Shown here piece after piece: positions 15,901-26,525 of a stretch of DNA of 32,584 nt (position 1 is the stretch's first letter; every line of letters starts with the position of its first letter). Below the pieces are notes generated by a model that saw only the letters and a program-made list of their open reading frames with translations, did no database searches and was not told the DNA's origin. This DNA comes from a virus (Duplodnaviria > Heunggongvirae > Uroviricota > Caudoviricetes), in IMG/VR virus record IMGVR_UViG_2565956616_000004; one strand, written 5' to 3'. Both the position numbers and the translations under genes were made by a program.

Positions 15901-16701
15901 AGCAATAAAGACGAGATCAAGCAGGCAATGGACGCAGCAAGTGCGCGCATTGCAGCAGAACGGAAAGCCAATCTGAATCATGCAGTCGCCGCGCTGACTC
16001 AATCGTGGGTAACAGCAATCAGGGAGGCCGCCACCACAGGAAAAATCACACCGGCAATTGCGGATGTCGTAAACGACGGCTCTAAATTTATGGATGCCTA
16101 TCAAATGGATGCGGTGCAGTTGCCATCAGCCTATGGCCAACTCAGCTATCGCATGACCTACAACCTGGTATCAATGTTTTCCGACCTTGCCATCCTTGGG
16201 CTGGTGGACCTTAACGAGGTTACGCCGGAATTGCTCAGCATGCGCAAGAACCATGTGGAGATATTGCACAGAATTAACACGGTACTTTCCGGGCGCACCG
16301 ATGAAGAGAAACAGGCAGACGCTGATCGGATAAACCTGGCCCTAGGCAACATCACGGAGGAAGAAATTGCCGCCAGAAACGAGAAACAAGAAGAGTTATC
16401 ATCAATACAGGGTGATGCCACCAGCATAGCTCAGTCTCTTGGTCTGAATTATCGCGTATCCACCGCCGACCTGAAGATGATGTACGCACCAAAATTCGCC
16501 GCTGGCGAGGTATTTGGGCTTCAGGAGGCGTCCGGCATGAAAGGCATTCTTTTCCGTGCGAAAGACGCAATCAAGGCGAAATTCGGCGCTCGCTGGCTGC
16601 CAGCGAAGGCGAAGAACAGCGATTTCCCGGGTAACTGGTGGATTATCGAGACAAAACACAACGTGGCGGACGTTCTGGCCGTCATCCAACAATACGCATA
16701 A
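9934..16701 (+). CDS. darB: DarB-type antirestriction protein: N6-adenine DNA methyltransferase fused to a superfamily-2 helicase (2255 aa)
   Basis: AAGGA Shine-Dalgarno then ATG at 9934. Methyltransferase motif I-like EPSAGTGVF and motif IV-like DHVVGNVPFGG; helicase Walker A GFGTGLGKTT, motif II VIADEGHNY, motif VI QRNGRGARVG. Length and domain order match what I recall for P1 DarB. Confidence 0.85.
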   Translation: MNKLSMGVFRCSSVSEILKYIRAITSHRAPIKYGVEKVEGKSYDRLRREANQKAIDLLNSLVDGATLTDEQRQILAGYTGEGGIGGSVSEYYTPKPIAEGVWEIMKLYGADVGNTLEPSAGTGVFNETKPVGTVMTATEISSVSGRINQLLHPEDSVQISPFEQLAVSTPNDSFDHVVGNVPFGGRDNTRNIDKPYAEETDMGSYFMLRMLDKIKPGGFMCVIVPPSIVSGSNMKRLRLRLSRKAEFLGAHRLPTGTFDANGTSTVVDVVLMRKHPAEMAEKIPLVDESTLESANVLWPTFISGKWFEKDGRRFVHGTQEKGFQGRIEVRADGQIDNQALKAKLIHRFESRIDWSLLDMAEPSPTADVVGEGEMRLINGVWQKYAGGRWIEADAGKELKIDAASYGADSWEALQRNLTTTEGRLGMTFTQMANVRDKYTTSISDDMVQLVDWINSQPEKYRERLYRGAMIGRMLIEYQDMKAAGHSAEQIEQQRLSLVSRLQAEIDRFGNPGRGPIAKLSGSGARAWFAFRGAIKLDGTISDELTGKLVTHDSSASYDSTSYQDTLRYLYSDLTRDPIQLDDFRLAFTGELPASDEELLNLLASTPGIAVSPYGGIVPFARATSGDINEIVAPKQEFLATLPDGPVKNNVLNQLAAIEEKRIKTPAENIRFKLNSRWFDRSVILEFLQENGYPDLRYVQSVQLEGDEMVSDTYHGGDGLFVGHRYGVVQRKDKETGEIRYEWDRKSGENATGFPAQLEKYLNGARIGGKDSATANGYREQMALLEDQFNKWIKTHDRYDELVAKYNDVFNSNIPYEHSGDPLGLKGLSGKRQPFDYQNSEVRRLSEDGRGILGFGTGLGKTTTALALEAFNYENGRSTRTAYVVPKSVLENWYYEAKEFLSEEAFSNYLFVGLDVLMDGDQIRQVQVLDENGKPVLGTDGTPVMRDALKLADEATITARMNAIPHSNYRAVVFTKEQYARIPLRDDTVDEHAQDMLYDFVAAGRVASAMDSDSHRKEAARRRVLSEYSDTGTEKAEKYPYFEDMGFDSVIADEGHNYRNSYKNGREASQLAYLPTSAVAQSARDMAIKNAYLMKKNGGRGPVLLTATPVVNTPIDAYNMLSHVLPKEYWQNMGIYGPDDFVKFFGKTRLETVQKISGEVEEKMALVGFENLDALRGIFHRWTTLKTAEDVKDTVEIPELDEHQQDAPLTEEQLAAYEELRQQAEAAAKANNGVTTSVNEDGVIEHEKARPIFSIIRDMDRVCTDMDLYYRRITYRFLPEYADAVQQLADSLPKQATSEDDDSDDSITQQSQYSLIDKGEFIQLQVPEAFEQEVNKRLARFGIDEQTVTHPVTPKYAKLIATLKEFFPEGKQIIFTDEKTQHQKLKRIICNALNLEPSKVGILNAQTVAEAGKTGKKLKAVKPPKELPDESTDAQIAKYNEQMALYDAYIAQQNEMSLGGLEKIAADFQEGRTPIIICNKKAEVGINLHRGTTDIHHLTLPWTPASIAQRNGRGARVGSNRASVRVHYYCGKGSFDEYRLKTLKRKAGWISDILRSDKSEMENADANDMIEMQMYTAKDDGERLAMMQVQMDKAKAAQRARQKEQATIDLQNYIKAQHAAGEDVEVLTAELERSKAELEKTTAEVAKFKQAVMAKAADNADWKARWGSVHHTDRTLLAQYRASLKSAIQRKANISQAISRYEKLLNRTQKAATDIKRLRPLVEDAINKGILDVDPDLVNHASEFLVIGDRSWRVGQYYDCAGDIVRIKSLDFDSQRADVEIIFTFKGTKSGNWDVKTLDKQVDVTPDEDAVMQKISGGVSIAGINDIISCDDFYRFQQRGMIKITDSYGVQTTESGYSIDFVGTYTDPLKHAVYPDRRDGALKSSIAKWVLGMMSEGNNRQIRSAETFLVELFGSNYGDVIASYGDTLSPEAIQEKIADAIARMPEKTSQGATRNGDSELEVTNAIFGTNEFRASDYEITTAQFGTIGIYSNKDEIKQAMDAASARIAAERKANLNHAVAALTQSWVTAIREAATTGKITPAIADVVNDGSKFMDAYQMDAVQLPSAYGQLSYRMTYNLVSMFSDLAILGLVDLNEVTPELLSMRKNHVEILHRINTVLSGRTDEEKQADADRINLALGNITEEEIAARNEKQEELSSIQGDATSIAQSLGLNYRVSTADLKMMYAPKFAAGEVFGLQEASGMKGILFRAKDAIKAKFGARWLPAKAKNSDFPGNWWIIETKHNVADVLAVIQQYA

Positions 16702-16702
16702 C

Positions 16703-16725
16703 AGGAGCGCCCGGTTCGCCGGGCG
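16703..16725 (+). other. AGGAG followed by a 7-bp GC hairpin with a UUCG loop in the darB-ulx spacer
   Basis: AGGAG at 16703-16707; stem cgcccgg (16708-16714) / ccgggcg (16719-16725) with loop ttcg. There is no T-run after it, so it is not a terminator. Confidence 0.4.
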
Positions 16726-16734
16726 TCGCATAAT

Positions 16735-17175
16735 ATGGCCACACTATCTGATACAATAAAACCGAATAAAACATATCTTGAGGCGGTACTCCGTACAGCG
16801 TTGTTAGGAAAGACAGAAGACGAATACGTTGATTTCTTCCTGTCAGGGCTACGCGGGCGATTACTGAAAAATCCCCGCCTGTACCGCAGCTATGGTCCAT
16901 ACTGGCCGGAAATTAAAAAATTATTACTGGAGCGCGGTTATGGTAATTTCGGTCGTCTCGTTGACCGTGACGTTCGCAAAATTTACCGTTATGACCGCCC
17001 GGCGCTAACACTCATAGCCGCGACGCTCTACAGCCAGGAGCGTTTTGATAATGGTCAGATATACTCAGCCTGGCATTTACTGCCAGTGCCTGAAGAAGTT
17101 GACGACCAGGACTATGAGTTTGAGTCTTACGATTTGGAAGTTGAAGCCTTGGCACAGGCTGGAGAGAAAACTTGA
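16735..17175 (+). CDS. Hypothetical 146-aa protein at the position of P1 ulx
   Basis: ATG at 16735 directly downstream of darB on the same strand. Identity is inferred from gene order only. Confidence 0.5.
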   Translation: MATLSDTIKPNKTYLEAVLRTALLGKTEDEYVDFFLSGLRGRLLKNPRLYRSYGPYWPEIKKLLLERGYGNFGRLVDRDVRKIYRYDRPALTLIAATLYSQERFDNGQIYSAWHLLPVPEEVDDQDYEFESYDLEVEALAQAGEKT

Positions 17176-17420
17176 AAAAGCGATACTACACAGTAAAGCA
17201 TGGGACGCTACGAGCATTACAAGAGTTTGCTGACAAGCATAACGTTGAGGTGCGCAGGGAAGGGGGAAGTAAAGCTCTGCGCATGTACCGTCCGGACGGG
17301 AAATGGCGGACGGTCGTCGATTTCAAAACAAACAGTGTTCCCCAGGGCGTCCGCGACCGGGCATTCGAAGAATGGGAGCAGATCATCATAGATAACGCAT
17401 TGCTTCTGAATGCTGATTAA
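17172..17420 (+). CDS. Small protein (82 aa) at the position of P1 lxc (C1 co-repressor)
   Basis: TTG start overlapping the upstream stop (TTGA), preceded by GGAGAG. The size matches my recollection of Lxc; not a sequence-level recognition. Confidence 0.45.
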   Translation: MKKRYYTVKHGTLRALQEFADKHNVEVRREGGSKALRMYRPDGKWRTVVDFKTNSVPQGVRDRAFEEWEQIIIDNALLLNAD

Positions 17421-17424
17421 GAAC

Positions 17425-17453
17425 TCTCCGGCCTAGGGAGATTAGGCCGGAGA
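17425..17453. terminator. Stem-loop between the convergent lxc-like and SIR2 genes
   Basis: Perfect 11-bp stem tctccggccta / taggccggaga with loop gggagat; the flanking U-tracts are only moderate. Confidence 0.5.
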
Positions 17454-17461
17454 TAAATATA

Positions 17462-18766
17462 CTATATAAACTTAGATACAATATCGTGAATCTGTTGTAG
17501 CGGGATATCTTCCATCTCATTCTTAATAAGAGAGCGGTTAGATGCTGTCAGTGAAGGCCATTTTGTTTTCCAGGCTAGATATGCTCGCCATGAGTAGCCT
17601 GTTTCGTAAGGTTTATTCATATAAGTCATTGAGTGTTCAACCGCATGTATGTATTTTTTCTCAAAATTGGTTCCTTTTACTTCAAATAAACTACCGAAAT
17701 AAATAAGCCATTTTGCCAGGTGTTCATACTGCTCCCATGCGCCAGGCTTTTTAGTAAGTTCTATTTTTTTATCTATTATATTACAAAAAACATTTAATAC
17801 ATTTTCATTATTCCAGCTATATCCAGATGATGAAATGGAGGAAATGATATGATAAAAAGAATCCTCTAGCTTCAAGAACTCTATTTTATACTCTCTTCCG
17901 TTTTTTATTACCGATTTGATTGAGTGCCTCAATTTGTCTTTTATTTTTTTTGCTTCTGGAATTTTATCGTTAAGTTTTCTAAAGAAATCAGATACCTCTG
18001 TTTTATCTATAACCCTAACCCCATAGCAGGAAAAATAGTAATCTTTAATAGGTTGCAATAGTTCCCCTCGGGAAACAAGGAAAATATTGGAGGACATTAC
18101 GTTGTCCCGTGAAAATACCTTATATTCATTTATAATAGCCTTTAGGTTCGCGTCACTTAGAGAATAGCCAAGGATAACAATAGTGTTTTCATGTAGAACT
18201 GTGCTTAGTTTATTAGAAAAGTAAGAATTACCATTTATAAATCTGAAATAATCCTCGCTAGTAACAACCATGTCTGATGGGGAGTCTATAGAACCGTGAA
18301 CATGGTAGACTTTAACCTCACAATTATATTTTGGAATTGGCAGGCCGGGGGTGATTGTACACGTTCGATTCTCTCCAGCCAGCTTTTCTGCTAACTTGTC
18401 ATAATTTGTCGTAATTACTTTAAATGTGTTTTCTTTGAAAAAGTCTTGAATATATTCAATTGATGGATCAAGTTCGATTGAGGCTATGATTTTCTCAATC
18501 TCTTGGTAAATATTTTTCCCCGAAAGTATAAATTTTAGTGCAATAACCTGAGCAGCTTCTTCAAGGCTAAGGTCTTTTGCTTTTCCATCAGGAAATAATT
18601 CCTCTTTGAGTGAGTCACCATCCTTCAATAAACCGCACAGTTGCTCCAATAAAGATTGCCAACTTGGGGCTTTATCATCAGAAACAGCCTTTGAAAATCC
18701 AGTGCCTGTAAGAAAGCACAGCCTATGTGTAGCCGCTGCATAGGCAATTTCTATATACTCGCTCAT
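17462..18766 (-). CDS. SIR2-family (SIR2_2-like) domain protein, 434 aa: N-terminal SIR2 NADase-like domain plus an unassigned C-terminal domain of about 200 aa; candidate anti-phage effector
   Basis: ATG at 18766 with a GGAG Shine-Dalgarno 6 nt upstream. Motifs FLTGTGFS (aa 18-25), ITTNYD (aa 118-123; N121 codon at 18404-18406) and HVHGS (aa 155-159; H157 codon at 18296-18298). The gene is visibly AT-rich (roughly one-third GC by eye) while the flanking genes are near 50 percent. Confidence 0.85.
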   Translation of the reverse strand: MSEYIEIAYAAATHRLCFLTGTGFSKAVSDDKAPSWQSLLEQLCGLLKDGDSLKEELFPDGKAKDLSLEEAAQVIALKFILSGKNIYQEIEKIIASIELDPSIEYIQDFFKENTFKVITTNYDKLAEKLAGENRTCTITPGLPIPKYNCEVKVYHVHGSIDSPSDMVVTSEDYFRFINGNSYFSNKLSTVLHENTIVILGYSLSDANLKAIINEYKVFSRDNVMSSNIFLVSRGELLQPIKDYYFSCYGVRVIDKTEVSDFFRKLNDKIPEAKKIKDKLRHSIKSVIKNGREYKIEFLKLEDSFYHIISSISSSGYSWNNENVLNVFCNIIDKKIELTKKPGAWEQYEHLAKWLIYFGSLFEVKGTNFEKKYIHAVEHSMTYMNKPYETGYSWRAYLAWKTKWPSLTASNRSLIKNEMEDIPLQQIHDIVSKFI

Positions 18767-18822
18767 TACTTACTCCATTTACTTATAGTTCTACGGAGAA
18801 GTATACCCTAATGCATTGACGT

Positions 18823-19464
18823 TTATAGATAATTTCCTTTTCCTGTTAATACTCCCTTAGGCACCTGTTTTTGTGCCAGCGTTTGGGTGCCGCGAATTAT
18901 GTTAATCAGAGGGCTTAGTAACGATGGTTCCTGGCGTGCCTCAACTTCTCCAGCCATTGCCCTGATGTAGTCGGCGCTGGCAACGTTGTTGTATTCCGTC
19001 GCAAAGCAACATAGTAACGTCAGAACATGCTCTGTCGTTATTTCGCTCCAGTTAATGTTGAAAAATTCATCGCCTTTTTTATCGTGTTCGGAATCGAAGA
19101 TGCTTTGGTGGAGGATGTATTTGCCGGATTCCTTGCGCGGTAACTTGATTGCTTTCTGGCGTTCCAGCTCCTTATAAATCTGCATTGCCTCAATTAGTAC
19201 CGGCCTGCCGTTCATGAAGGGATCGCGCAACCTTACACGCTGGCCAACTCGACCAGTAATAAAGCTGTTTTCCTCTTCCACCAGCACGATAAAACCCTTT
19301 TCCTCTTTTTCTCGCAATTCGCGCAGCAGCTGGAGTTCCATATCGCGGCGGCGTTCAGGGTAGCTGGTCCGCTCAGCCATTATTAGCTCATTGTTGATCC
19401 ATGCAGCAGTCATTGACGCCGGTTTGCCGACGCTCATCGAAACAACGCATATTTTCTTATCCAT
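18823..19464 (-). CDS. Hypothetical 214-aa protein immediately upstream of the SIR2 gene on the same strand (position of P1 mat)
   Basis: ATG at 19464 with an AGGGGG Shine-Dalgarno; the longer 262-aa track ORF uses a GTG at 19611 with no Shine-Dalgarno and runs through a terminator. Backbone-like GC content. No recognisable catalytic motif. Confidence 0.5.
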   Translation of the reverse strand: MDKKICVVSMSVGKPASMTAAWINNELIMAERTSYPERRRDMELQLLRELREKEEKGFIVLVEEENSFITGRVGQRVRLRDPFMNGRPVLIEAMQIYKELERQKAIKLPRKESGKYILHQSIFDSEHDKKGDEFFNINWSEITTEHVLTLLCCFATEYNNVASADYIRAMAGEVEARQEPSLLSPLINIIRGTQTLAQKQVPKGVLTGKGNYL

Positions 19465-19476
19465 AGCGCCCCCTAC

Positions 19477-19505
19477 AAAAAAGAAAAGCCACCAGCGGCG
19501 GCTTA
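19477..19505 (-). terminator. Intrinsic terminator downstream of ref (minus strand)
   Basis: On the minus strand: stem gccgcc/gguggc (one G-U pair, extendable by aagcc/ggctt) followed by UUUUCUUUUUU; it lies about 10 bp upstream of the next gene's Shine-Dalgarno. Confidence 0.5.
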
Positions 19506-19653
19506 GCAATACAACTGAAGGTAGCGCCCGGTACTCAGACTGTGCCGTCCATGGAATATTTGAAAAGGGATCCATCCGTACCGGGCATGTGATGATTCTG
19601 ACTGAAGTCACTTGTCAGTTGTCAATTATTTCAGATTAAAAATAATATATTTA

Positions 19654-20214
19654 TTAGTGCATGATGTTTGCCATCTCATAGGCGTCAGCCAGCAACTCCA
19701 TCTCTGACTTGTTCAGCAAGGTGAATTCTTTCTTGCCTCCAACCACACCATCGGCATGAACAGGGACCAGCCAGGGGTATTTTTCTCTTACTTCAGCCGG
19801 TGCTGCATGCTGGTGGTGCCATCTACAAAGTGGCAATTGCTTTTTGTGACAACCAGGCGCGGTACGACCGGAGATATGGTGCAGAGACACCTCTTCAGAT
19901 ATTACTCCATGCATATAGCAGGCAATGCAGGGGAGAGCGCCAAGAGCATTGGCTATGCGCCGCTCCTCCGCCGTCGGTGTTCGTCCCTTCAAGCCACGAG
20001 ATTTTATTTTTACCGCGCTTTTCCGCGTTTTGCTGGCTGGTGGGCGCTCTTTCTGTTTAGCGATACGGCGGTCGATAGTATTCCGCATTTTCTGATATTG
20101 AGATTCTCGCCAGGCCGGATCAGCCAACTTCTCCCGTTGCCGAGCGATCGCTCGTTCTCTGGCTGCCTTCTGCCACTTACGGTGCTGTTCAATTTTTTGT
20201 TCGATTGTTTTCAT
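19654..20214 (-). CDS. ref: Ref (recombination enhancement function), HNH-family endonuclease
   Basis: 186 aa from ATG 20214; basic low-complexity N-terminus (MKTIEQKIEQHRKWQKAARERAIARQREK) and a Cys/His-rich HNH-like core (CIACYMHGV...SLHHISG...CHKKQLPLCRWHHQ). Matches my recollection of P1 Ref. Confidence 0.85.
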   Translation of the reverse strand: MKTIEQKIEQHRKWQKAARERAIARQREKLADPAWRESQYQKMRNTIDRRIAKQKERPPASKTRKSAVKIKSRGLKGRTPTAEERRIANALGALPCIACYMHGVISEEVSLHHISGRTAPGCHKKQLPLCRWHHQHAAPAEVREKYPWLVPVHADGVVGGKKEFTLLNKSEMELLADAYEMANIMH

Positions 20215-20219
20215 ATGGC

Positions 20220-20245
20220 AAAAAAAAGGCGGCCTGATGGCCGCC
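20220..20245 (-). terminator. Strong intrinsic terminator in the ref leader, ending 5 nt before the ref ATG
   Basis: On the minus strand: 7-bp GC stem ggcggcc / ggccgcc with loop atca, followed by U8. Confidence 0.6.
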
Positions 20246-20305
20246 AATGATGTCAAGGAGTTAAGTAATGGCAACGTCTTCGTAGTTGACAAAAACTGCG
20301 GCTCA

Positions 20306-20329
20306 ATTATAGCAATCAATTAGAGCAAT
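20306..20329 (-). promoter_or_regulatory. C1 operator-like site overlapping a minus-strand TATAAT (candidate C1-repressed ref promoter)
   Basis: Minus-strand ATTGCTCTAATTGATTG (20313-20329) followed by TATAAT (plus coordinates 20306-20311); a second AGCAAT half-site is adjacent. Confidence 0.55.
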
Positions 20330-20435
20330 GGTAGAGATTTTGTTTATCGCGAATCACATTTTTTCACTTCAGTACCTGTGTGCTATACTCCTTCTTGATT
20401 GATTGGATGCGGAATACAAACCCGCTCTTTTGTGC

Positions 20436-23847: not shown

Positions 23848-25332
23848 TTATTCATTAAGCCATGCCAGAGCTTCATCAACCTGCGCTTCGTCTTCGACGC
23901 TAAGCACTTCATCCTGGGGAACATAATCCGCCAGCATAGCGAAACAATATGTATCCCAATGGTCTGGTGAGTGCAGGTTGAGTTTTTTCTTCATATCCTC
24001 CTTACTCATCACCTTCCATTGACCTGCGGAGTTAATCCCTACAGGGATTTTCGACGCTTCCTCAATAGTTTCATTACCCTTATCCAGTCTCATACGACCA
24101 GATTTTACGGCCTCTGCGGCTTGAACGTTGGCATAAGCACGTTTATCAAAGTACAGGCTCTTATCTTCACGGCTATGCATCTTTTTACCCCAGCGTATAC
24201 GCTGTACGGTAATACCATAATACTCGTACATCAGATCCGCCGTTGCTTTACCCAGCCCATCGCCGTCTATCGCTATGGTGATATTTGGGAATCGCTCAGG
24301 ATTACATTCTGCGAAAATTTTGGCGGCAAGCTGCGTTTCTGTAACGTCTGTGTATTCCAGCATTCGATAGTTGATTACACGGCGTTTATTTCTCTGGCCG
24401 GACACCATCATGATATTGATAACGGACTTATCCCGTCCCGTACCACCAGCAACGTCCACACATGCAAGCCAGCCCCATCCTTTGGCAATCTTGACTTTCC
24501 GCCGCGTCGCACGTTCAACCTCATCACGTCCAAGAAGGAAGCCATCCTGTGATTTAGGGAATAGTCCGCGTACCTTAATCATGTACATAGGGTTATCACG
24601 CCCGCCGTACTCCGCCAGCTTCATTTTGATAAATGCTGGCGTTACCAGCGGTGATTCCTCACTGTTAAGCGTGATCGCCGTATAAACGCCATCAGGGTTA
24701 CCAGGACGCTTGGCCAGTTTATGGTGAGTATCGTAGAAATAGCCGCTTGGGCGTGTAGGCTGTGACAGTAATAAGATGCGGTTATCCTGTCCGGTAAGAG
24801 CACCGGTGATGATACCGAAAGCTCTATCACTGACACCGGAGGCTTCATCGATAATATACAGAAGATGATCTGCGTGTTCACCGGCGAGAGCTTCTTCACT
24901 TCCCAGACGAAAGCCCTTCGGTACTACAGTCCATACACCTTTACCAGTAACCTCATAGAAAGCGGTTTCTGTCAGAACAAAATAATCAGCAAGCCATGGA
25001 AAACGGCTGGTGGCAGTAGCCCAGTTTATCTTGATGTACTTGAATATACCGGTCATTACCTGCTGAATTTTGTTCGCAACGATAATGGCGCGGGCACCGG
25101 GATACATGATTATGAACAACATGATCATGATAGAAGTCATGTCTGATTTCCCGGTACCGTGACCAGACGAAACAGATGTCTTGCTACCCTGTTCCTGCAC
25201 AGACTCAATAATCAGATCCTGCTGCCAGGTAGGTGTTTTGCCGAACAAAACATCAGCGGCAGCAATCCAGTCATAACGATATAGCGCCACCAGCTCGCGC
25301 CAACGTGGATCCGTTACGCAACTTCTGGCCAT
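23848..25332 (-). CDS. pacB: PacB terminase large subunit
   Basis: 494 aa; Walker A GHGTGKS, Walker [10 protein letters not shown]; start ATG overlaps the pacA stop (TAATG). Confidence 0.93.
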
Positions 25333-26525
25333 TAATCATCATCCCCGTATAGCTTGCGGGTAACTTCTTCGTCTTCCTCCTCGTCTTCGTCCAGGTCTTG
25401 TTCCAGCCATGGGTCGTTTGATACACCTTCAGTATCAACATCTCCATAACCGCCTGTATCAACGATATCGGCGATTTCTTCCCTACGCTGCTCAATCCAC
25501 AATGCGGCATCGGCGCGGCGGTTGGCGGCCCGTTCTCGCGCAACTTTGTCCAGATCTTCAAGAGAAGGGCCACCGACGGCTGTTTGCCTTTCCTCATCAT
25601 CGGTATTGGTCTTAGGAGCACGCAGATCGGCTTTGATTTGCTCCAGCATCAGGGGCGGTACTTTCCCTCCATGCGCCTCGATGAATTCAGCTGCCTCCAG
25701 CACTGACCAGTTGTTTTCACGCTTTCGTTCGTATGCCAGCTTAACAATGCCAGCTTGCCCCATAGACAAAGCGTGCTTTTCCGCCTCCCGGCTTTCTTTT
25801 CGATAGTTATTCCGGATGCTGTAAATGGTGTTGATCAGGCTGCTTATCTGCGCGGAACAGCTGTTTAGCATGCTCGCGATACGGTATTCAGGCGGAGTTC
25901 CTTCATCATCGTCTTTTTGCTGATCGCGCATTTCCTGAACCAAGCGAATACACGTATCCCTGGCGTTCTCCAGCATAAGGAGATGAGAGAGAGACTTTTC
26001 CAGAAGAGTGGTTTCCAGAACATCAGCCCCGGACCGACGCAACATAGCGCGCGCGGCCTTCCGCGCTTCAACGTTATCTATCAGGTAATCGCCAGCTTCG
26101 AATTCAAAGCGTTCACCATCATCATCCAGGGTGTCGCGTTCCAGGCGATCACGTAAGGTCCGGTGGGCGCGGGTGATCACGTCATGATCATCAGAACGAT
26201 CATTTATGCGCTTATTCTGGCGCTTCGCGTTCTCGACTGCGGCACTGACAACAGCATTAACTCTTTGTTTTTCAGCCATTTCAGCCACAATGTGATCACC
26301 TGCACGTTGATCATTAGCGTGATCAATGATCATGCTTTTTAGTGGTTTTCTGACAGGCTTATTTGGCTTACGGCTGTCCGCTGTTCCGGTGTCTTCTTTG
26401 AATGCACGGAGATAACGACGTGCGGTGTTTGGGTTGAGATTAAACTCGGCGGCATATTGTGCGATGGTGTAACCACCATCTCGCGCCAGGCGAGCAAAAT
26501 TCTTCTTGTGATCGTCCCAGGTCAC
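25332..26525 (-). CDS. pacA: PacA terminase small subunit (contains the pac site)
   Basis: 397 aa, apparent GTG start with an AAGGAAG Shine-Dalgarno; acidic C-terminus; the pac hexamer cluster lies in its 5' part. Confidence 0.9.
26175..26332. repeat. pac packaging site: seven TGATCA-type hexamers (Dam sites) in two clusters, 3 + 4
   Basis: TGATCA at 26175 and 26186, GATC at 26199-26202, then TGATCA at 26293, 26308, 26320 and 26327. The P1 pac site is described as about 160 bp with this 4/3 arrangement. Confidence 0.85.

Follow-up and report, generated by a model that had tools for sequence, protein, structure and literature searches.

Does the open reading frame (ORF) that lies directly upstream of a SIR2 gene in the virus record IMGVR_UViG_2565956616_000004 serve that gene as a partner in defence, or is it an ordinary gene of the phage backbone? 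We addressed this question in the whole 32,584-nt stretch of the record, hereafter called the window, in which an initial annotation had placed the ORF at 18823-19464 and had weighed both possibilities. By sequence comparison, the ORF is mat of bacteriophage P1. It is very probably a backbone gene and the neighbour of a stand-alone SIR2 cargo gene in an exchange slot, and Mat would be neither needed for SIR2 nor adapted to it. The features at the centre of the question are the following.

18823-19464, minus strand: mat coding sequence (CDS), 213 aa plus stop, phage backbone; recognised by identity to P1 mat, by phrog_1837 and by the MDKKIC N-terminus that is invariant in the close family.
17462-18766, minus strand: SIR2 gene, 434 aa, probable stand-alone cargo (PF13289 SIR2_2, E = 2e-23).
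18767-18822, minus strand: 56-bp junction, the cargo-specific leader of SIR2, with a GC content of 35.7% and a GGAG 6 nt ahead of the ATG; not present in P1 or in the other cargo classes.

The ORF was real and stood where it had been reported, beginning at ATG 19464 and ending with a stop codon at 18825-18823. Its 642 nt comprise 213 codons plus stop, and the earlier figure of 214 aa had included the stop codon. Across 86 P1-like loci, diversity was 0.072 at third versus 0.005 at first and second codon positions, which indicates that mat is a real gene. The comparison with P1 Mat that had been proposed was carried out, and it favoured the backbone reading: the DNA was 92.8% identical, and 204 of the 213 residues (95.8%) were the same, with all nine substitutions confined to the last 50 residues. 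The profile phrog_1837 matched the window protein over its full length (E = 6e-113, positions 1-212 of 212); this family carries no assigned function, and in P1 the protein is named P1_gp006, 'maturation control' or particle maturation. The window is of the P1-like phage-plasmid type, and its positions 16700-20400 were 100% identical to the Escherichia coli plasmid CP148519.1. The gene order cre-c8-ref-mat-[slot]-lxc-ulx-darB was common to the window, P1 and plasmids, in agreement with the earlier remark that the ORF sits where P1 has mat. The two loci differ downstream of mat, where P1 has the convergent res/mod genes and the window has SIR2. The GC contrast described earlier also held, with 47.7% for mat and 48.5% for the window, compared with 35.3% for SIR2. 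There is nothing new in the identity itself, as mat is already named in P1 as an ordinary backbone gene.

We then compared how widely the two genes occur. In PLSDB, mat was found in 694 records and the window SIR2 in 66, all on P1-sized plasmids, and mat was retained when the slot was empty as well as beside at least nine other types of cargo. The ORF was thus conserved across slot contents, as a conserved phage gene would be. As regards a two-gene SIR2 system, mat and SIR2 did not co-occur as partners (694 versus 66 records, and empty slots besides), and Mat lay outside the exchanged module except for the last ~160 nt of its gene, which hitch-hike. We regard mat as backbone and SIR2 as stand-alone cargo because distribution, slot contents, homology boundaries and the contexts of SIR2 elsewhere all agree. 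The boundaries were clear: homology with P1 and with locus L003 ended at 18823, the mat stop, and resumed at ~17416-17423, the lxc stop. The exchanged unit would thus be 17424-18822, made up of SIR2, its 56-bp leader and a terminator. The slot and its flanks are as follows.

17424-18822, no strand assigned: mat-lxc slot as filled in the window, one gene with leader and terminator, delimited by homology breaks against P1 and P1-like plasmids.
17425-17453, minus strand: hairpin terminator where the SIR2 and lxc genes converge (11-bp stem, 7 G-C pairs).
17172-17420, plus strand: lxc, 82 aa, which is conserved and flanks the slot on the right (98.8-100% amino-acid identity wherever lxc was found; lxc/modulator annotation in phage SJ46).
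19654-20214, minus strand: ref, which encodes a RecA-dependent nuclease and is conserved upstream of mat (PF16786, E = 3e-50; annotated as a 561-nt CDS in P1 and plasmids).

To define the contents of the slot, the distance between the stop codons of mat and lxc was measured in 80 IMG/VR loci carrying the closest Mat relatives and in plasmid examples; a scan of genome contigs added 2 loci. Among the IMG/VR and plasmid loci scored there were at least 11 slot states, ranging from 35 bp to 5.1 kb, with the cargo in either orientation and mostly consisting of a single gene.

35-45 bp: hairpin only, in 9 fully scored loci; the adjoining Mat is 98-99% identical to that of the window.
~586 bp: lipoprotein-like ORF of 135 aa.
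878-921 bp: GNAT.
1050-1060 bp: PIN_12, PDC-S34-like.
1196 bp: DUF2971, PDC-S31-like.
1272-1277 bp: RelA/SpoT-like gene, the CapRel of phage SJ46.
1408 bp: the window SIR2 (allele A).
1416-1421 bp: second SIR2 allele (B), 57% identical in protein to the window SIR2.
1704 bp: YaaC and a nucleoside deoxyribosyltransferase-like gene.
1749 bp: EAL.
~3570 bp: ant and JukA.
~5090 bp: EcoP1I res/mod, as in P1.

These results suggest that mat and lxc, which converge, enclose a slot in which cassettes are exchanged, with mat on its left side, and that the intervening cargo is swapped by homologous recombination within lxc and within the conserved part of mat. The cargo here would be one self-contained, AT-rich SIR2 gene of the NADase type with its own leader and terminator.

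The 3' end of mat behaved differently from the rest of the gene. Nucleotides 1-480 were 95-99% identical to the window whatever the cargo, compared with 63-100% for nucleotides 481-642, the last 162 nt, where identity tracked the cargo class; diversity was 0.21 in these 162 nt versus 0.03 in the remainder.

18823-18984, minus strand: variable 3' end of mat, a putative left recombination boundary that encodes a C-terminal tail modelled at low confidence; defined by cargo-tracking identity, by breakpoints, and by residues 172-213 with a predicted local distance difference test score (pLDDT) below 50.

Homology breakpoints were found inside mat at 18941 and 18955 in loci L004 and L005, so the diverged 3' end (~160 nt) would often travel with the cargo by hitch-hiking. 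The protein tails did not sort by SIR2. When tails with 88% identity or more across the final 45 residues were counted as one type, that of the window occurred beside both SIR2 alleles (A and B), CapRel and GNAT and also beside an empty slot, and another tail type was common to the res/mod and ant-JukA elements. On these sequences there is no SIR2-specific Mat. The possibility that Mat carries a tail specific to its cargo, serving as an antidote, was therefore dropped, as the window tail type also occurs with the empty slot, CapRel and GNAT. One further observation concerns P0340 from the Logan assemblies, a 392-aa ORF in which Mat residues 1-81 are fused to the second SIR2 allele from about its residue 120; it resembles the product of a deletion, which would leave neither gene functional.

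The SIR2 protein carried the motifs TTNYD and HVHG, and the PADLOC models for ThsA, PDC-S25, LmuA and Dsr2 matched its SIR2 domain only, at about residues 100-250. Full-length homologues of ~434 aa with 55-61% identity were widespread in Gammaproteobacteria. In the phage collection, megablast with the SIR2 gene gave no match and tblastn returned distant SIR2 domains only. Four unrelated contexts of SIR2 homologues were examined.

L006-L009, 5001-6311: E. coli lambdoid prophage, homologue beside the integrase (55-57% identity).
L013/L014, 5001-6308: Klebsiella P4-like satellite, homologue between primase and Phage_cap_P2-family genes (55-57% identity).
Halomonas: homologue in an island.
Marinobacter: homologue adjoining a type I restriction-modification system.

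No Mat homologue was detected near the SIR2 homologues in these four contexts (tblastn E > 0.5), and across the six contexts compared SIR2 was the sole ORF in common within 3 kb on either side. The ~434-aa architecture was conserved as a lone gene. A lone SIR2 gene thus recurred in differing mobile-element slots, and uncharacterised SIR2-domain systems have been described in the P4 defence hotspot (Rousset et al.). The window protein resembles Thoeris ThsA/ThsB, SIR2-HerA and DSR1/DSR2 in its SIR2 domain (PF13289), across which the ThsA and Dsr2 models match. It differs from ThsA in lacking a SLOG domain, the ThsA models matching at residues 117-236 only, and no TIR domain was found among the called neighbours of SIR2 in the contexts examined. 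It differs from SIR2-HerA and from the long DSR1/DSR2 proteins in having no HerA neighbour and no long DSR-type C-terminal region.

Comparison of the two SIR2 alleles was informative about the leader. Alleles A and B followed similar mat tails, and their divergence started in the first codons of the gene; the 56-bp leader was near-identical upstream of both (window 18767-18822 versus L002 7643-7698, and also in L031, L036 and L037), even though the proteins are only 57% identical. The shared leader suggests either that one allele replaced the other by recombination inside the cassette or that the leader is a conserved expression platform.

Some observations weigh against the independence of mat and SIR2. 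At the DNA level the 3' end of mat co-varies with cargo class, which could be read as coupling. The slot class counts are biased, as the sample consisted of the 80 closest Mat relatives. Both the defence role of SIR2 and its independence from Mat are read from genes and their distribution. Finally, the junction contains no terminator and only a weak promoter candidate, and SIR2 may depend on transcription through mat.

This last point concerns the expression of the two genes, which the initial annotation had described as co-directional, 56 bp apart and plausibly co-transcribed. Spacing and orientation were as described (SIR2 17462-18766 on the minus strand, junction 18767-18822). A consensus scan found no sigma-70-like site of at least 9/12 on the minus strand in or near the junction, in line with the earlier statement that no convincing promoter is present; the best site in a relaxed scan scored 8/12, with -10 TATACT at 18805-18800 and a poor -35 overlapping the mat stop. 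The terminator scan gave no terminator-like site between mat and SIR2. Since the junction has neither a terminator nor a good promoter, co-transcription of mat and SIR2 remains plausible. The control region and leader of mat comprise the following elements.

19646-19663, no strand assigned: Omat, an operator of the C1 repressor that overlaps the end of ref; assigned by identity to the annotated P1 element.
19595-19625, minus strand: Pmat and the overlapping LPmat; identical to the P1 annotation (NC_005856, 2666-2696).
19465-19594, minus strand: mat 5' leader, with a 5' stem-loop, a terminator-like hairpin (19504-19486) and a T-run, from the terminator scan and fold prediction.

Omat reads CATGCACTAATAAATATA at 19663-19646 and is identical to P1 Omat at 2628-2645 (NC_005856). 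The sigma-70 promoter Pmat has its -35 TTGACA at 19625-19620 and its -10 CAGAAT at 19600-19595, the latter shared with the late promoter LPmat, whose -22 box AAGTGACTT at 19613-19605 overlaps Pmat. All four mat control elements annotated in P1 were identical in the window, and the region was 97.7% identical across 216 nt, so that the window and P1 agree in the Omat/Pmat/LPmat region as well as in the position of mat between ref and the slot. Judged from this identity, mat should be transcribed, as in P1, from a C1-repressed Pmat and an overlapping late LPmat. Dual control of mat, with Pmat under C1 and LPmat active late, was reportedly described by Lehnherr and colleagues in 2001.

Read-through from mat into SIR2 is possible, and it would be a coupling in timing rather than a partnership. 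If SIR2 were expressed mainly in this way, its level would follow C1 derepression and late lytic growth, and the link between the genes would be transcriptional only. The absence of a terminator between them, the 8/12 score of the best junction promoter and the conservation of the 56-bp leader between two such different alleles are consistent with this explanation. However, the P1 annotation has Pmat repressed by C1 and LPmat late, and transcripts must also cross the terminator in the mat leader; read-through alone would therefore not give expression in the lysogen, where a defence gene that stays silent would bring little benefit. Promoters with a weak -35 are common in AT-rich cargo. The closest comparison is CapRel(SJ46) of Salmonella phage SJ46, a single-gene defence cargo in the same mat-lxc slot and likewise co-directional with mat, although it encodes a RelA/SpoT-like fused toxin-antitoxin effector instead of SIR2 and follows mat after a gap of 112 bp instead of 56 bp. 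A pBR322-based construct without a promoter, carrying the CapRel ORF and the 100-200 bp that precede it, protects E. coli (PMC9712102), and hence does so without an intact mat; in the same slot and orientation, CapRel is expressed from its own upstream DNA. We consider SIR2 expression mainly by read-through rather unlikely, and retain SIR2 as a cargo gene served by its own leader.

The 5' region of mat bears on a further alternative, which concerns the extent of the gene itself. Two earlier statements applied here and each stood in part. The Shine-Dalgarno sequence was present (AGGGGG, 4 nt before the ATG) and is moderate rather than strong. The terminator said to lie just upstream of the ORF was found by the terminator scan as a hairpin with a T-run at 19504-19486; it lies within the mat leader, ~90 nt downstream of the mat promoters, and is therefore no sign that another transcription unit begins there. 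The 130-nt leader between the -10 element and the ATG was nearly invariant, with a diversity of 0.015 versus 0.072 at mat third positions (86 loci), and this near-invariance persisted even where the upstream gene differed. Its predicted fold reached -44.7 kcal/mol with a modest z of -1.9, with a 5' stem GCCCGGUAC...GUACCGGGC and, after it, the terminator hairpin with its T-run; an Rfam search of 17300-19800 gave no match. The leader may gate mat as an attenuator, or it may be the source of a ~100-nt small RNA. The interval between ref and mat (equivalent to ~19470-19650) was also a repeated transposon target. In locus L003 (1098-6515) it holds a TnAs1-type element with a chemotaxis-receptor gene, and in SJ46 (L100 1-2252) it holds Tn1721 with blaCTX-M-27 (PMC5241659); in both, the mat promoter region stays beside mat.

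The P1 annotation gives Mat 250 aa, from a start equivalent to window ATG 19575, and the true product could be this protein, or one of 262 aa starting at 19611, in which case the hairpin would be coding. The frame is indeed open from ATG 19575 in the window and in P1, and the upstream frame is kept in 35/88 loci. It is lost in 51/88 loci through a 1-nt length polymorphism in the G-run at 19472-19476, before ATG 19464, and the extension is frameshifted in L002 and L005. Moreover, ATG 19575 lies ~20 nt past the -10 element with no Shine-Dalgarno sequence seen before it, and the PHROG profile (212 positions) and all distant homologues begin at the short form, whose N-terminus is MDKKIC without variation in close relatives and M-x-x-K-I in every distant homologue. 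We regard the long product as quite improbable; the mat start in the P1 GenBank record is probably too far upstream, and the 213-aa form is favoured.

The remaining alternative, that Mat is a sensor, regulator or antidote working with SIR2 in a two-gene defence operon, has in its favour the shared orientation across a 56-bp gap lacking a terminator or consensus promoter and the cargo-dependent DNA of the mat 3' end, but it is hardly credible and already largely refuted by distribution, given that mat occurs in about ten times more plasmid records than the window SIR2 and persists where the slot is empty or holds one of at least nine other types of cargo, that the segment exchanged relative to P1 ends at the mat stop, that Mat beside SIR2 is 98-99% identical to Mat beside empty slots and shares its tail type with other cargo, that SIR2 homologues in four contexts have neither a Mat homologue nor a common neighbour, and that the two genes differ by 12 GC points.

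With mat placed in the backbone, we turned to the nature of the Mat protein. It had no match in Pfam or PADLOC, and the earlier statement that the protein has no recognisable motif therefore held at the sequence level; it did not hold at the level of predicted fold, which was of the terminase-type, RNase H-like kind. A model built from 22 sequences reached a pLDDT of 78.5 and a predicted template modelling score (pTM) of 0.71, with residues 172-213 below 50. A first model from 12 close sequences had a pLDDT of 59, and the 22-sequence model gave the same matches. Foldseek against viral models returned terminases among its matches. The predicted fold resembles the nuclease domains of large terminases (T4 gp17, G20c, Sf6 gp2, SPP1 G2P and human cytomegalovirus UL89), which are related to RuvC.

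A profile search of 1.84 billion representative proteins yielded 144 clusters of Mat relatives of ~200-230 aa. In 60 relatives the conserved positions were D/E63-E64 at the end of strand 4 (98-100%), D/N124 and D/N138-W139, and G131 and the C-terminal Leu were invariant. Large terminase nucleases carry their first catalytic Asp on strand 1. In contrast, no conserved acidic residue was present on or just after strand 1 of Mat in these 60 members, with positions judged from sequence and secondary structure; position 11, just after strand 1, was a nearly invariant Ser. The set of acidic catalytic residues that includes the strand-1 Asp was thus not found, and Mat, at 213 aa, has no N-terminal packaging ATPase. 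Because the first catalytic Asp is not conserved, Mat may not be a canonical nuclease, and because the test of catalytic residues failed and there is no ATPase domain, we do not class it as a terminase. We infer that it may be like, or derived from, a terminase/RuvC-type nuclease domain.

P1 has its own terminase subunits, which are present in the window as PacA (25332-26525) and PacB (23848-25332, 494 aa). Pfam gave no match on PacB, and phmmer of PacB against PDB gave nothing better than weak, chance-level matches (E ~0.8), located in the C-terminal nuclease portions of Sf6 and E217 terminases, which puts the nuclease domain of PacB itself on weak footing.

Several results weigh against the fold assignment and the role that would follow from it. 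The fold comes from a predicted model, and sequence identity to the large terminase nucleases was only 7-10%. When PDB sequences were searched with a profile built from 60 Mat relatives, all matches were at chance level (E > 0.5), and hhalign of the Mat profile against PacB gave a probability of 0.3 with no significant similarity. P1 mat has long been known solely from a particle-maturation phenotype. The gene is listed as essential from amber mutants, whereas a P1 CRISPR interference (CRISPRi) screen scored it non-essential, with an efficiency of plating (EOP) of 0.28, in conflict with that older literature.

Gene order in distant relatives was consistent with an old association. In homologues with 17-33% identity, the next gene was a baseplate wedge gene (phrog_1269) whose start codon overlaps the mat stop codon (L097 6001-8185; L098 and L099 6001-11340). 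The phrog_1269 gene was in turn followed by a series of tail and baseplate genes in L098 and L099, and in L099 a Ref-like RecA-dependent nuclease gene preceded Mat. The ref-mat pairing and the link to morphogenesis would therefore be old. Our best guess, tentative and short of an even chance, is that Mat binds or processes DNA, or docks through its tail on the packaging or assembly machinery, during virion maturation. Likewise short of an even chance is the description of Mat as a stand-alone, probably non-canonical large-terminase nuclease domain (RNase H/RuvC-like) with a flexible tail ending in the conserved Leu, acting on DNA or on the packaging or assembly machinery, and expressed through a leader that may serve as an attenuator or yield a ~100-nt small RNA.

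For the SIR2 system these findings would set the boundary at a one-gene cassette of ~1.4 kb (17424-18822). For the P1-like phage-plasmids as a family, the mat-lxc interval is a cassette slot that holds EcoP1I and CapRel(SJ46), both well studied, together with several other single genes. The slot catalogue, the predicted Mat fold and the conserved leader are by-products of the analysis, and the structural clue may give a testable starting point for mat, an old and poorly understood gene of P1.
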